Positions 55,682 to 60,699 are shown, counted from the stretch's first letter. The stretch is 64,000 nucleotides of DNA from Eledone cirrhosa (GCA_964016885.1 OZ024740.1:346146001-346210000), one strand, 5' to 3'. A program made the numbers and translations. Notes: a model not told the origin generated them from the sequence alone.

Positions 55682-55771
<90 letters not shown>

Positions 55772-55779
55772 CAGATTAA

Positions 55780-55830
55780 AGTTTAAGCAAAGAATCGCTG
55801 CTTTCACCCTTAACGGGATCTTCTGAAACT
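55780..55830 (-). ncRNA. Hammerhead-like motif, U4A (family C)
   Basis: Reverse complement of 60520-60570. Confidence 0.65.
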
Positions 55831-56769
55831 AACAAAGTCAATCTGTAAACGCAGAACTGGAAATTTCAAAAAAAATTTGCATCCGGAGGAAGACAGGAAG
55901 ACGATACTTTGGTTCGTGGAGACGTTCCCTGGCAAAGAACGGGAAAAAACGAATATAATACGCCATTAATAGGAGCGGTGAAAAACAATTAACCGCAAAG
56001 ACAGAACCACGTTTATGGTATAAAAGAGGTCGTAGACTAATGTTCTCTTAGATGGTGCATAGAGACGTTCTCTGACAATGGACGAAAAAAACGAAGATAA
56101 TACGTCATATGTGGAGCGTGGAGAACAATAGCACGCAAAGACAAAACCACGTAAATGGTATAGCAGAAGTCGTAGACTAAAATTCTAACTAGGAGACCGA
56201 ATGAATCTCCGCTACAGAGTTAAGAACAAAGTAAATAAATACAATACAGAAGTAATAGAAATAAATAAATACATACACGCAAACAAATACGTACATACAC
56301 AAGCATACGCAAAAACTTACCATAGGTAAACAAAACCACGCACATATAAATATGTGTGTGTGTGTGTATGCGTGTATACAAATAAATAAATAATTAGATA
56401 AACGTATACAAATAAATAAATACGTATATAACAAGCGCACACGCATACCTACATGTAAATACACGAATGTTCGGAGACGTAAGTCAACCAAAACATGAAG
56501 TACACATATACACACGCCCTACATACGTACGAACATGCATACTCACACAGACGCAAAACTACCGTATACACATAGCCGAACCATATGTACCAGAATATAT
56601 TAAAAAATGTATGCGCCATAACAATCAAATATACGTACGAGAAGGTATACGTACCTTCACAAAACATACGGGTAATATATACATACCTATGCAAATAAGT
56701 AAAGGTATAAACAAAACATATACTTAGCTCCCACGTCAAGACGGAAAATATCCACGTATAGATCGTACT

Positions 56770-58896
56770 ATCCGTTAGGGTATAACGTGGGGCTGTAATA
56801 CAGGAAAGTTTTGTGCAATTTATGTTTACAAGCCGAAATTGCCTCAGATTTTTGTTTAAGATGTGGTCTGTGGCGTAGAGTATTTCCAGGGCCTCAGCGG
56901 CGCAGAGGTCACATGGTCTTTTATTTCCGTTATACGATCTAGCCCTAGCTAGGATCTCCCAGTTTAACTTATATTGGGTGTGGTTCTCTTTTAGACTCCA
57001 GATATAAGCTGAAAGTGACGTCATATTCCTTCTTAGAGGGTAACGAAAAGAATGGGTGTTCATGTAAAGACGCTGCTTGAATCTATTGGCGGTTAACCCT
57101 ATGTAGGCCCTACGGGACGTGGGTGTTACAACCTTACATTTGTAGACAATGTTACTAGCGAGGCATTTCCCGGATAGGGGGCAATCAACCCGATTCCTAC
57201 AATTACAGTTAGTACTAACTACAAGGGTGCACGTGTTCCGACGGCTAGGTAGTTTAGCTAAATTTGAAGCTGTGATGCTATGTGCAAGGTTAGGAGTCGT
57301 AGAGAAAGACATTTTTATAGTATTTCTATTAAAAATGTTACTATATTTATGTGTAGGGGGAAAATGCTCCGTTATAAGGGAAATAAAGATCTTAGCTAAT
57401 GGTGTGGCCACCTCCATAATATATGGTGGGTTATACCAACAAATACGACGGGATCTATTTCTTCTATGTCTATTTTCGTACACTGTATATGCTACCTTAT
57501 CGACAAATCCACTTCGAGCAAGAGCTTCATTGTAATAAGTGGAATGGTCGTTGAAAATGCTCTCGTTGGTGGAAAGACGGGAAAGCCTCAACGAAACGTT
57601 TCATATCAGGTTCTTGGTTACGCTGGGAGGATGGTTGGAATTCTTACTTATGTAATTAAGCGTATCATTCGGCTTTCTATACGGGTAATACAACCCATTC
57701 AATATGATGAGGGTAACGTCGAGGTAATTAACGAACGAGAGATGGGCCTCAACCTGTATAGAAAGGTTGAAGCCTTTAAAGAAGGCTATGAGTTCTTTTC
57801 TGAACCTGTCGCAAGCACGAGGTCCGCACTTAGTCATGGTCAAAAGACCATCGTCACGGTACAAACCACCGCCCGCGTTGGGGCATTCGTCCTTGATAGA
57901 GAAAATAATGAAAAGGCCGATAAGATCAGTAACCTCCGCAGAATCACTGGCGCCCATACTCACGGCGAATGGGGTACTATTGGATTTTTTAATCCAAATA
58001 GAGTCGTCGAAATTAATCACCGACTTTCGGCCATTGAGGATGAGATCAACTTCGAAATCCTTAACCACTGTGAGTGTTTTAGCGAAATTGATAGCTCTAA
58101 GGAGATGTGGTAAAGTGATGGAGGAGTAGTAATTGTTGATGTCGAATGGGATAAAACGGCAATGTTCCTTGTTGCATATGCCGTTGAACCAATCAATCAC
58201 CGCGTAGGAATTGTTCCACAGTGCAAGAGGGCCCAAACTTCTAATTTCAGGTATAATTCTATCAAGAATCGTTTTACTAAGTCTACCTAAATCGGTCTTC
58301 GTAGGGTTAATAAGCCGAATAAAGGGGTTGTTCGGAAAATTGGATTTGTGATCCTTCAGGGTAAAGTGGGGAGAAATAGGGTCCAGAGGTCCGGTCCGGT
58401 CCAGGATGTTGAGATCAGATGTGATTTTAAACCCAGCATCGTTGATTTCATTGATGACGCACCGATTAGTTTTACGGTAATCCTTAGTTACAGCATTATG
58501 TAGTAGTTGATGGTAGGTACTGCGCTCCACTTGATATAGGTTGCCAGTTTTGTCGGAATGGACGTGCACGGCATGAGAATCCTTAATAGAACGAATTCTA
58601 TTCTTCAGGTCTTGCTGGAAGGAATTGCTCATATTCCGAAATTTGATATTCCGAATGAGTTTCAAGACATCATTTTCGAAGGGTAGCAATGCTGGATTAC
58701 ACGGGGGCTTATTAAAGGTTTTAAATCCAAATTTATCCTGTTTGTTGTCTGCTTTTCGCGGATTATCGAAGTAAAAGGCCCGCCAACGCAACCTTTTAAT
58801 GAACGCGTCTCTTTTCTGTATTAGGAGTTTTAGGTATGTTTTCCTGCTTGGTACGGGTATCTTCTTTGTAGAAATATTCAGATGTTGTTTCTGCAT
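56770..58896 (-). pseudogene. PLE polyprotein (RT + C-terminal GIY-YIG) with two frameshifts
   Basis: ORF 57601-58896: SDKTGNLY, LKDHK, FDINNYYSSI, MGASDSAEVTDLIG, GLYRDDGL, NYLDV, SNHPP. ORF from 57591: WYNPPY, CNCR..CPLSGKC, IVY..YIGLT..FKQR, CDLC. Confidence 0.93.
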
Positions 58897-59086
58897 GATG
58901 AATATAAGTCAGTAGAGTGCTCAACCGAGGGAGCCAAATAGTAATAATAATAAATTTGAACAACTAAAATCCAAAGAGGGCTCGATAAGGATAAATATAT
59001 ATCAAATATATAAGAACCGTAGAGCAAATATTAAAATTTCTTACTCTACGACTCCTAACCTTGCACATAACATCACAGCTTCAAAT

Positions 59087-59581
59087 TTGGCTAAACTACC
59101 TAGCCGTAGGAACACGTGCAACCCTGTAGTTAGTACTAACTGTAATTGTAGGAATCTGGTTGATTGCCCCCTATCCGGGAAATGCCTCTCTAGTAACATT
59201 GTCTACAAATGTAAGGTTGTAACACCTACGTCCCGTAGGGCCTACATAGGGTTAACCGCCAATAGATTCAAGCAGCGTCTTTACATGCATACCGATTCTT
59301 TTCGTTACCCTCTAAGAAGGAATATGACGTCACTTTCAGCTTATATCTGGAGTCTAAAAGACAACCACACCCAATATAAGTTACACTGGGAGATCCTAGC
59401 TAGGGCTATATCGTATAACGGAAATAAAAGACCATGTGACCTCTGCGCCACTGAGGCCATGGAAATACTCTACGCCACAGACCACATCTTAAACAAAAAA
59501 TCTGAGGCAATTTCGGCTTGTAAACATAAATTACACAAAACTTTCCTGTATTACAGCCCCACGTTATACCCTAACGGATAG
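59087..59581 (+). CDS. GIY-YIG endonuclease part of the inverted truncated PLE copy (open to the natural stop; not an independent gene)
   Basis: CNCR..CPLSGKC..NIVYKC..YIGLTANRFKQR..CDLC..E..LNKKSE..SACKH. Confidence 0.8.
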   Translation: MAKLPSRRNTCNPVVSTNCNCRNLVDCPLSGKCLSSNIVYKCKVVTPTSRRAYIGLTANRFKQRLYMHTDSFRYPLRRNMTSLSAYIWSLKDNHTQYKLHWEILARAISYNGNKRPCDLCATEAMEILYATDHILNKKSEAISACKHKLHKTFLYYSPTLYPNG

Positions 59582-60519
59582 TACGATCTATACGCGGATA
59601 TTTTACGTCTTGACGTGGGAGCTAAGTATCTGTTTTGTTTATATCTTTACTTATTTGCATAGGTAAGTATATATTACCCGTATGTTTTGTGAAGTTACGT
59701 ATACCTTCTCGTACGTATATTTGATTGTTATGGCGCATACATTGTTTAATATATTCTGGTACATATGGTTCGGCTATGTGTATACGGTAGTTTTGCGTCT
59801 GTGTGAGTATGCATGTTCGTACGTATGTAGGGCGTGTGTATATGTGTACTTCATGTTTTGGTTGACTTACGTCTCCGAACATTCGTGTATTTACATGTAG
59901 GTATGCGTGTGCGCTTGTTATATACGTATTTATTTATTTATATACGTTTATCTAATTATTTATTTATTTGTATACACGCATACACACACACACACACATA
60001 TTTATATGTGCGTGGTTTTGTTTACCTATGGTAAGTTTTTGCGTATGCTTGTGTATGTACGTATTTGTTTGCGTGTATGTATTTATTTATTTCTATTACT
60101 TCTGTATTGTATTTATTTACTTTGTTCTTAACTCTGTAGCGGAGATTCATTCGGTCTCCTAGTGAGAATTTTAGTCTACGACTTCTGCTATACCATTTAC
60201 GTGGTTTTGTCTTTGCGTGCTATTGTTCCCCACGCTCCACATATGACGTATTATCTTCGTTTTTTTCGTCCATTGCCAGAGAACGTCTCTATGCACCACC
60301 TAAGAGAACATTAGTCTACGACCTCTTTTATACCATAAACGTGGTTCTGTCTTTGCGGGTAATTGTTTTTCACCGCTCCTATTAATGGCGTATTATATTC
60401 GTTTTTTCCCGTTCTTTGCCAGCGAACATTTCCACGAACCAAATTATCTTCTTCCTGTCTTCCTCCGGTTGCAACGTTTTTTGAAATTTCCAGTTCTGCG
60501 TTTACAGATTGACTTTGTT

Positions 60520-60570
60520 AGTTTCAGAAGATCCCGTTAAGGGTGAAAGCAGCGATTCTTTGCTTAAACT
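60520..60570 (+). ncRNA. Hammerhead-like motif, U4A (family C)
   Basis: AGTTT-CAGAAGA-tCCC gttaa GGGt-GAAA-GCAG..TTGC-TT-AAACT. Confidence 0.65.
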
Positions 60571-60699
60571 TTAATCTGTTATTTTAATAAATATTAGCTC
60601 TACGGTTCTTATATATTTGATATATATTTATCCTTATCGAGCCCTCTTTGGATGTTAGTCGTCAAATTTTTTTATTATTACTATATATATATATATATT

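Follow-up and report, generated by a model that had tools for sequence, protein, structure and literature searches.

The Penelope-like element (PLE) described here occupies positions 55769-60684 of a 64,000-nt window, the whole stretch of DNA that was analysed, from Eledone cirrhosa (GCA_964016885.1, OZ024740.1:346146001-346210000), where two head-to-head copies of one element lie between two (TA)n runs. It is very probably a dead copy belonging to a new family of the Hydra clade, likely inserted by target-primed copying from a nick in a (TA)n run. The locus is ordinary for its kind, namely a dead copy of a large known clade, for which the (TA)n preference and the inverted structure have already been published. 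In addition, we tentatively propose that Hydra-clade PLEs share an RNA hairpin, duplicated in the pseudo-long terminal repeat (pLTR), which docks the reverse transcriptase (RT), so that target-primed copying would start ~5 nt upstream of either hairpin copy.

Anatomy of the Element

The window is A/T-rich, with 30-41% G+C in all but two 2-kb bins, and is dense in microsatellites (99 rows in Tandem Repeats Finder (TRF)). The left flank is a (TA)n target run of 49 copies (55673-55770, located with TRF and in the sequence), and the right flank is a second such run (60682-60698, from the sequence). The full-length unit lies on the minus strand (55769-59032, 3264 nt) and consists of a 5' pLTR, an open reading frame (ORF) and a 3' untranslated region (UTR) that reaches a 'short' 3' end. 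Its single ORF (56768-58896, minus strand) encodes the RT, thumb, CxCX5C linker and GIY-YIG endonuclease (EN) and was expected, from a first-pass annotation of the window, to span about 700 aa; it has 709 codons from the ATG at 58896 to the TAG at 56770-56768, with X placed at two breaks. On the plus strand, a 5'-truncated inverted copy (59029-60684) carries the thumb end, the EN, the 1.1-kb 3' UTR and a complete tail up to a 'long' 3' end. This copy begins at the equivalent of 57319, shares ~4 nt with the minus unit where the two meet and extends ~100 nt beyond the minus unit's end. The alignment of the two arms (59029-60582 against 57319-55768) has 1555 columns, of which 41 are mismatched, and contains 4 gap bases. 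It holds an unbroken C-terminal frame of 183 aa (59030-59581, plus strand), so that the intact C-terminus is indeed supplied by the inverted copy. Two direct repeats of 135-138 nt, 78% alike, are located in the 3' UTR upstream of the hammerhead (60164-60441, plus strand) and are mirrored at 55910-56186 on the minus unit; no clear shared fold was found for the repeats at 60164-60441.

The extra stretch of ~100 nt in the plus copy is pLTR sequence: the 95-nt 5' pLTR (58938-59032, minus strand) is 92.6% identical to the terminal tail copy over 95 nt (60590-60684 versus 59032-58938), in line with the earlier statement that the tail equals the sequence just 5' of the ATG. The internal pLTR copy reads on as TAC-TAT-TTGGC, whereas the terminal copies at 60684 and 2423 read TAC-TAT-ATAT. 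The terminal copies run into TA and the internal one into the 5' UTR, hence (TA)n is target and not element, as had been claimed. A target-site duplication is not recognisable outside the TA runs, and inside them none would be discernible. As a side observation, the two pLTR copies (58938-59032 and 60590-60684) differ by 7.4% as compared with 2.6% for the long arms (p=0.013), an excess that possibly reflects a template switch between family copies.

Protein Domains and Clade Placement

The Hydra clade has been described as having a C-terminal EN, RWK and DKT motifs, no IFD, a CxCX5C linker, no CCHH, CxxC and CxH flanking the catalytic E and N, canonical hammerheads and insertion into (TA)n (PMC8557442); 26 of the 27 Hydra families listed in File S1 of that paper are marked (TA)n, and inverted copies and one-sided tails are described there for PLEs including the Hydra clade. 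The element shows what is expected of EN-containing PLEs in general, with a TERT-like RT and a GIY-YIG domain in the same ORF, a pLTR, an inverted 5'-truncated copy and a one-sided tail. Its ORF motifs are RWR (residues 37-39), DKT (115-117), motif A with D252, YRDD (346-349), CxCX5C (564-572) and CxxC (662-665). The ORF is single, lacks an IFD and has the EN as its last domain, and motifs A and B are spaced by 63 residues, as compared with 62-63 in 94 of 103 scorable homologues. DKT is shared with 96 of 117 long homologues (15 have DKS), RWK appears as the conservative variant RWR, which is also seen in 22 of 89 full-length homologues, and GFKTF stands where other PLEs have GxKF/Y. The linker CxCX5C is present, CCHH is absent, and CxxC and CxH surround the catalytic E and N. 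Within the 59030-59581 frame, the EN residues are Y59, Y72, G74, R83, H87, E142 and N155, together with CxxC and CxH; the Y, YIG, R, H, E and N columns are invariant, a single Cys lies between the two Tyr motifs, and the linker and flanks read CNCRNRVDC, CDLC and CKH.

Predicted folds agree with these motifs. An AlphaFold model of RT residues 1-431 (pLDDT 92) had TERT 3du5 as its best Foldseek match (E=1.2e-8), and the top two matches are both TERT (3du5 and 6usq), with a small margin over other RTs. For a model of the C-terminal 183 aa (pLDDT 86.5), a wide structural search (VIA) returned I-TevI (Z 9.2, rmsd 2.4, 89 aligned), T4 EndoII (7.6) and UvrC (6.0), and the top four matches are GIY-YIG-type nucleases or nuclease domains. 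A homologue search yielded 963 proteins among 4054 candidates, the best being 52% identical, and a profile search yielded 5,329 representative proteins at E <= 1e-30; a cluster look-up of homologues P0001-P0003 gave no names. The homologue P0009 shares a 12-residue stretch with Hydra-2_Amil, a published protein; its identity to the element is 43% across the full RT piece and 40% over 167 aa of the EN piece. In a quick tree of 66 of the 183 eligible rows, the ORF groups with P0001, P0002, P0155 and P0156 (SH-aLRT 100).

Like the Hydra-clade families Hydra-2_Amil and Hydra-1_Obim, as far as these are documented in the published material, the element has a single ORF of ~700 aa with RT followed by GIY-YIG, a hammerhead-like motif near the 3' end and (TA)n insertion, and its 5'-truncated inverted copy resembles that noted for the Hydra-clade Penelope-13_HM (PMC8557442). 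Subgroup residues shared with Hydra-1_Obim by eye are SDKT, DSA..DLIG and KNLI; identity with Hydra-1_Obim itself was rejected, since hammerhead row, length and protein differ by eye. The element is set apart from named Hydra families by a nearest database protein that is only 52% identical, and a 14-nt stretch of the family hammerhead was absent from the supplement text of PMC8557442 in a text search. It also differs in its 3.3-kb unit with a 1.1-kb 3' UTR, as Hydra elements are generally <3 kb (a tendency, PMC8557442; the excess here is 3' UTR), and in RWR for RWK. Naiad PLEs share the (TA)n preference, pLTRs, inverted copies and one-sided tails, but their N-terminal EN, DKA, CxC, IFD and CCHH are absent here, and Naiads are described as lacking a canonical hammerhead; membership in Naiad/Chlamys was rejected on the N-terminal EN, DKA and IFD. 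In Neptune and Nematis the EN is likewise C-terminal, a Cys linker is present and the pLTR contains a hammerhead, but their DKG, CX2-5CxxC and CCHH do not fit, and neither DKG nor CCHH in the EN, as expected of Neptune/Nematis/Poseidon, was found. A DKG-type PLE in the same window is 24% identical to the element in the RT.

The hammerhead departs from the clade pattern. At 60520-60570 (plus strand) lies a type I hammerhead-like motif whose core has A at position 4 and whose loop III is 9 nt long, with a predicted cut after 60565. The motif recurs in the minus unit (55780-55830, minus strand); its three helices and core are at the expected place near the 3' end, A4 and the 9-nt loop III being the non-canonical parts. 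The A4 core (CAGA, not CUGA) is found in 5/5 family copies, including one that is 85% identical, with a loop III of 9 nt. By contrast, the Hydra rows of File S2 all have U4, with 1-3-nt loops (PMC8557442), and U4 is present in 27/27 hammerheads, in a scan allowing any base at position 4, of 18 related loci with a Hydra-type RT (L001-L018) that were obtained by scanning species-representative genomes. An Rfam scan of the window gave no hammerhead match and 141 sub-threshold matches to microRNA (miRNA), small nucleolar RNA and small Cajal body-specific RNA models. A natural U4C hammerhead variant is reported to be weak in vitro and sufficient in vivo (PMC3088659), hammerhead activity is reported to be dispensable for Poseidon insertion in vitro (PMC11167929), and a literature search for a U4A hammerhead returned no paper. 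The A4 form may be a tolerated or degenerating variant, and it is likely weak or dispensable.

Insertion Into (TA)n Runs

Insertion into (TA)n can be read from the family's copies within the window. A miniature inverted insertion of the same family (2199-2423) consists of two hammerhead-bearing arms that meet at 2270 and are 88-97% identical to the main copy; its short end is on the left and its long end on the right, with (TA)n on both sides, and the derivative of ~225 bp reported near 2200 does have the same end as the main copy. A 77-bp inverted remnant (36492-36568) runs with its long end into (TC)n and with its short end into (TA)n, and in an older, 85% identical family fragment with an A4 hammerhead core (42878-43062, plus strand) the short end is followed by a non-TA repeat. 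Five of the seven family 3' ends in the window (55769, 60684, 2199, 2423 and 36568) adjoin (TA)n. In terms of (TA)4+ runs, 5/7 ends adjoin one, as compared with 7.1% of the window that is no more than 3 nt away from one (binomial p=3e-5), although the ends are paired from 4 insertions, hence the binomial counts are not independent. In the related loci, (TA)4+ follows within 200 nt downstream of 12 of the 21 Hydra-type hammerheads whose stem III is 4 bp long, against a baseline of 217/3262 windows (6.7%), and at least 4 of the 9 without TA are, by eye, internal copies or junctions. Targeting of (TA)n is therefore supported, with the preference of the nuclease judged from insertion sites, and it is already known for the clade. 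The earlier proposal of a compact (TA)n-inserting RT-EN element thus stands as far as the element is concerned; the system is the published Hydra clade (PMC8557442) rather than a new one.

The related loci L001-L018, which are Hydra-type PLEs with hammerheads and (TA)n flanks, lie in contigs of bacterial genome records, and these contigs are probably animal DNA within symbiont or metagenome bins. The hammerhead of L011 matches, by eye, the published row for Hydra-2_Amil. Direct repeats of 126 bp, 93% alike, at 43056-43181 and 43584-43709 are attached to the old family fragment at 42878-43062; they carry half a hammerhead core, the second ends in (TA)n, and they are possibly the pLTR pair of another PLE.

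A number of observations weigh against the placement of the element and its mode of insertion. A Pfam scan of the three ORF pieces found no family (among five homologues scanned in the same way, P0069 alone matched GIY-YIG), a profile search of PDB sequences gave no match, and Foldseek of the EN model gave nothing at E <= 0.001. The rows of the quick tree are all unnamed homologues, with neither named PLE references nor an outgroup, hence no clade name can be taken from this tree, and the link to named Hydra families is an indirect one, through P0009 and Hydra-2_Amil. In the monomer, the hammerhead fold is less stable than the minimum-energy fold (-4.8 versus -8.8 kcal/mol). Finally, two of the seven family ends are off (TA)n, with 36492 on (TC)n in a compound run and 43062 on another repeat.

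Decay, Age and Alternatives for Target and Activity

The ORF had been described as interrupted by two frameshifts, of which the second stands, as a 1-nt loss in an A-run near the EN C-terminus (~56853; 56851-56854, minus strand, from the arm alignment), and the first is instead an in-frame TGA at 57603-57601 (minus strand) with the same frame on both sides. The inverted copy, starting at the equivalent of 57319, spans the frameshift only and does not reach the TGA. At 159 columns conserved in at least 90% of 120 homologues, the minus copy is off consensus 24 times, as compared with 4 for the median homologue and 15 for P0001, and many of these 24 departures are subfamily traits common to P0001 and P0002. 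Seven lie in the single-copy part where P0001 retains the consensus residue, including P258S, D311A and N385H. The nonsense codon and the likely decay substitutions have no second copy, hence the element is not reconstructable from this locus alone, contrary to what had been suggested.

Of 1551 aligned bases, 41 (2.6%) differ between the arms. The codon changes, 5 of them synonymous and 14 nonsynonymous, match random drift (p=0.59), and the divergence implies ~28 base changes in the ORF. After insertion, both arms would have drifted neutrally, by ~1.3% each. From this neutral divergence of 2.6%, the copy can be read as moderately young and dead, so that its description as young holds loosely. 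Between the arms (55768-57319 and 59029-60582), transversions outnumber transitions (25 versus 16), G/T and C/A changes are common, and one 400-nt stretch has just 2 mismatches; the transversion excess and the low-mismatch stretch could reflect mutation spectrum, sequence error or gene conversion.

Two alternatives would change this picture. The suggestion that TA is not truly targeted, and that the element landed in A/T-rich DNA with (TA)n grown later from its own A/T-rich end, draws on the TAT that this end shares with the repeat, on the 2/7 ends not on TA and on the TA-richness of the window, 5.9% of which lies in (TA)4+ runs. We consider it very unlikely, as three insertions whose two ends differ in sequence are bordered by microsatellite on either side, no TA run has grown at the internal pLTR copy, the related loci show the same TA enrichment, and (TA)n is reported for nearly all listed Hydra families (PMC8557442). 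Still less credible is an element that remains active, with the TGA read through as selenocysteine and the breaks being sequencing errors. Selenoproteins do exist in Naiads, and an excess of transversions could arise from errors, but the TGA column is variable among the 120 homologues, is not Cys and is Arg in the nearest relative P0001, which makes selenocysteine unlikely, and it was rejected; near-invariant RT residues are altered (P258S, D311A, N385H and N12K), the H of the catalytic region is N in the minus copy, and coding divergence between the arms is neutral.

A Duplicated Bulged Hairpin at the 3' Ends

A hairpin with a GCTC...GAGC stem, followed by an ACTCT-like box, is found in the element and its relatives, downstream of the hammerhead and again just 5' of the ATG. 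Hairpin 1 lies in the 5' pLTR (58975-59025, minus strand) and in the terminal tail (60597-60647, plus strand), and hairpin 2 lies 17 nt upstream of the ATG (58914-58934, minus strand), with 1 upper-stem pair only in this copy. Inspection by eye first revealed it, both in the window and in published consensus sequences of Hydra-1_Ajap, Hydra-2_Ajap and Hydra-2_Amil. The sequence pattern gave 32 hits against 2.7 expected, and a structural descriptor gave 21 hits in 12/18 related loci against a shuffle mean of 0.34, with 5 against 0.19 in the window; the pattern was tuned on the same loci, hence these enrichment counts are partly circular. The spacer is unconstrained by the pattern, so that the pairing of the upper stem provides a test that is not circular: 18 of 25 distinct spacers form at least 2 Watson-Crick pairs at a 2-nt bulge, as compared with 1.75 in shuffles (maximum 7 in 2000), and at other bulge lengths 0-2 of the 25 pair. 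All 25 spacers end in T plus T, A or C. The lower stem covaries, being GCAC/GTGC in L002 and L010 and ACTC/GAGT at window position 1757. The proposed signal would have a lower stem of 4 bp (GCUC/GAGC type), an upper stem that is variable and covaries, a bulge of 2 nt (U-N) and, on the 3' side, an ACUCU-like box; in this family it would lie beside the hammerhead with its non-canonical core.

The 3' ends fall into two classes, the short ends preceding hairpin 1 and the long ends preceding hairpin 2. For end mapping, 408 repeat starts were examined, of which 19 aligned to a continuing template copy. Sixteen of these 19 repeat-abutting rows are 1-8 nt upstream of the hairpin, one is at 14 nt and two are internal (AT)4 runs in the hairpin loop, without which 16/17 testable 3' ends lie 1-8 nt upstream; TA/AT microhomology sites would place 36% within 8 nt (p=2e-5). 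This distance test is not circular. From these counts, the duplicated hairpin would likely position the two RT start sites that make the tail.

The insertion mechanism can be modelled on Poseidon PAc of Anolis, in which A/T-rich DNA is cut on both strands by the EN, each strand is then extended by the RT from sites internal to the RNA, and the tail corresponds to what lies between two RT start sites (PMC11167929). PAc shares the GIY-YIG domain, the A/T-rich target and a tail between two ends with the present element but belongs to a different clade (Penelope/Poseidon); its start sites are at an AC-rich stem-loop inside the ORF, whereas the ends described here lie on the upstream side of a bulged hairpin that is duplicated in the pLTR/5' UTR, and the PAc tail is 30-40 nt as compared with ~95 nt here. 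By analogy, the GIY-YIG nuclease would nick a (TA)n run and the telomerase-like RT would copy the element RNA from the nick; both strands would be cut and extended from internal RNA start sites (PMC11167929), one strand gaining the full unit and the other a 5'-truncated copy. Head-to-head joining of the full and truncated copies at short microhomology would yield the inverted structure, the ~95-nt stretch between the two start sites would become the one-sided tail and the pLTR, and early joining would give hairpins of 80-430 bp. As the counts suggest, each of the two copies of the bulged hairpin would likely place the enzyme such that reverse transcription begins ~1-8 nt upstream of it.

Several results speak against a docking role for the hairpin, besides the tuning of the pattern. 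The mapped ends stem from ~8 families, in the main copy itself the short end (55771) and the hairpin are 14 nt apart, and in the BLAST-based end mapping, which is noisy with microsatellite matches, an L010 end is 29 nt upstream and runs into (GAT)n, and two L005 ends, mapped via an 86% cross-family match, are ~21 nt upstream. Hairpin 1 of the element is no more stable than shuffles (z=0.32), and no hairpin is visible by eye in the published Hydra-1_Obim consensus. As for earlier records of the bulged hairpin, the Rfam scan of the window did not match it to any model, the main text of PMC8557442 contains neither 'hairpin' nor 'stem-loop' (0 occurrences), and no published description of the hairpin was found in a search whose reach excluded Repbase notes and subscription papers.

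Two other explanations of the end positions were weighed. The hairpin could serve transcription or translation, with ends clustering next to it since A/U-rich, (TA)n-pairable stretches precede it: the distance from hairpin 2 to the ORF start downstream of it is 10-23 nt in L002, L003, L004, L006, L007 and the window, microhomology between ends and repeat amounts to 0-5 nt, and the 14-nt distance of the main copy's short end also fits. We regard this as rather unlikely, given that a null limited to TA/AT dinucleotide sites places 36% of ends within 8 nt as compared with 16/19 rows, and that hairpin 1, despite its distance from the ATG, is as good a marker of ends as hairpin 2. Less probable again is that the two 3' end classes result from the EN cutting the element's own DNA intermediate beside the hairpin instead of from two RT starts. 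In its favour, the tail is attributed to EN-mediated resolution in PMC8557442, and the D. virilis tail is needed for EN recognition according to work cited in PMC11167929; however, the Poseidon tail was mapped between two RT start sites (PMC11167929), and a 3' bulge of strictly 2 nt is more in keeping with a folded single-stranded nucleic acid than with duplex DNA. Positioning of the RT by the hairpin stays our tentative preference, and the duplicated hairpin leads to a precise prediction of where and why the Hydra RT starts copying. If true, the hairpin signal would explain the PLE tail and pLTR at the sequence level, would amount to a template-boundary-like element in telomerase's sister group, and would provide a handle of 20-50 nt with which a chosen RNA could be loaded into a 700-aa (TA)n-targeted integrase. 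The only reconstituted PLE found in print is a Poseidon.

Small Hairpins and Other Repeats in the Window

The first-pass annotation held that the element explains the small hairpins of the window. After microsatellite masking there are nine zero-gap hairpins (one low-complexity TAA/AGT match was left out), of which eight have one arm flush on (TA)n and on the other side a 36-94-nt tail followed by (TA)n, and one (2203-2340) matches the element by BLAST. An outward hammerhead core is present in four (1764, 2203, 25394 and 60873), and a strict hammerhead scan found 10 motifs in the window against 0-1 per shuffle (20 shuffles). The explanation therefore holds at the level of mechanism class, 8/9 sharing PLE anatomy, and fails for descent of all of them from this family, which only 1/9 matches by sequence. 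The small hairpins can best be understood as short insertions from several PLE families that arose in the same way. Such genomes probably owe many of their short (TA)n-flanked palindromes, scored by Rfam as weak miRNA-like matches, to 3'-end insertions of several PLE families. The short motifs of two other hairpins were not found in the supplement text of PMC8557442, where matches can be hidden by FASTA line breaks.

Comparable non-coding PLE 3' ends that carry hammerheads, among them opposite-strand pairs 100-700 bp apart, are known from PLE-derived paired hammerheads (PMC4209133) and non-LTR retrozymes, and the small hairpins of the window resemble them. Retrozymes are described as head-to-tail tandems (bioRxiv 10.64898/2026.07.22.740005), whereas the pieces in the window are head-to-head single insertions with a one-sided tail.

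Individual hairpins differ in detail. The 430-bp hairpin at 1669-2188 has 99% identical arms, canonical hammerheads, an internal palindrome and a 94-nt tail that holds the covaried bulged hairpin at 1757 (minus strand), shares a TA run with the derivative at 2199 and likely represents a younger Hydra-type family. The short hairpins at 62508-62690 and 22230-22350 have the bulged hairpin in their tails, with the short end 5-6 nt upstream; it is intact at 62618 and, by eye, degenerate near 22240. An abundant (TA)n-flanked inverted family (1277-1620, 26345-26530, 27660-28230 and 41655-42001) has a 36-40-nt one-sided tail and no hammerhead core, possibly representing Naiad-type ends. Directly left of the main element, inverted arms at 53713-53877 and 55344-55506 (94.5% identical, 1.5 kb apart) each carry a hammerhead-like motif with C at core position 4.

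A second, unrelated PLE at ~5860-8512 (plus strand) is frameshifted and C-rich, with DKG, an RVT_1 match (E=9.6e-7), a CxxxxCxxC linker and a GIY-YIG-like YVG; it has a minimal hammerhead at 8394, ends in (TA)n at ~8512 and looks Neptune-type by its motifs. A dispersed family of ~190 bp, 80-90% alike and resembling a short interspersed nuclear element by size, is found at 5036-5243, 8856-9017, 12251-12443, 17960-18380, 20195-20405 and 24504-24679, and in tandem at 50600-51665.

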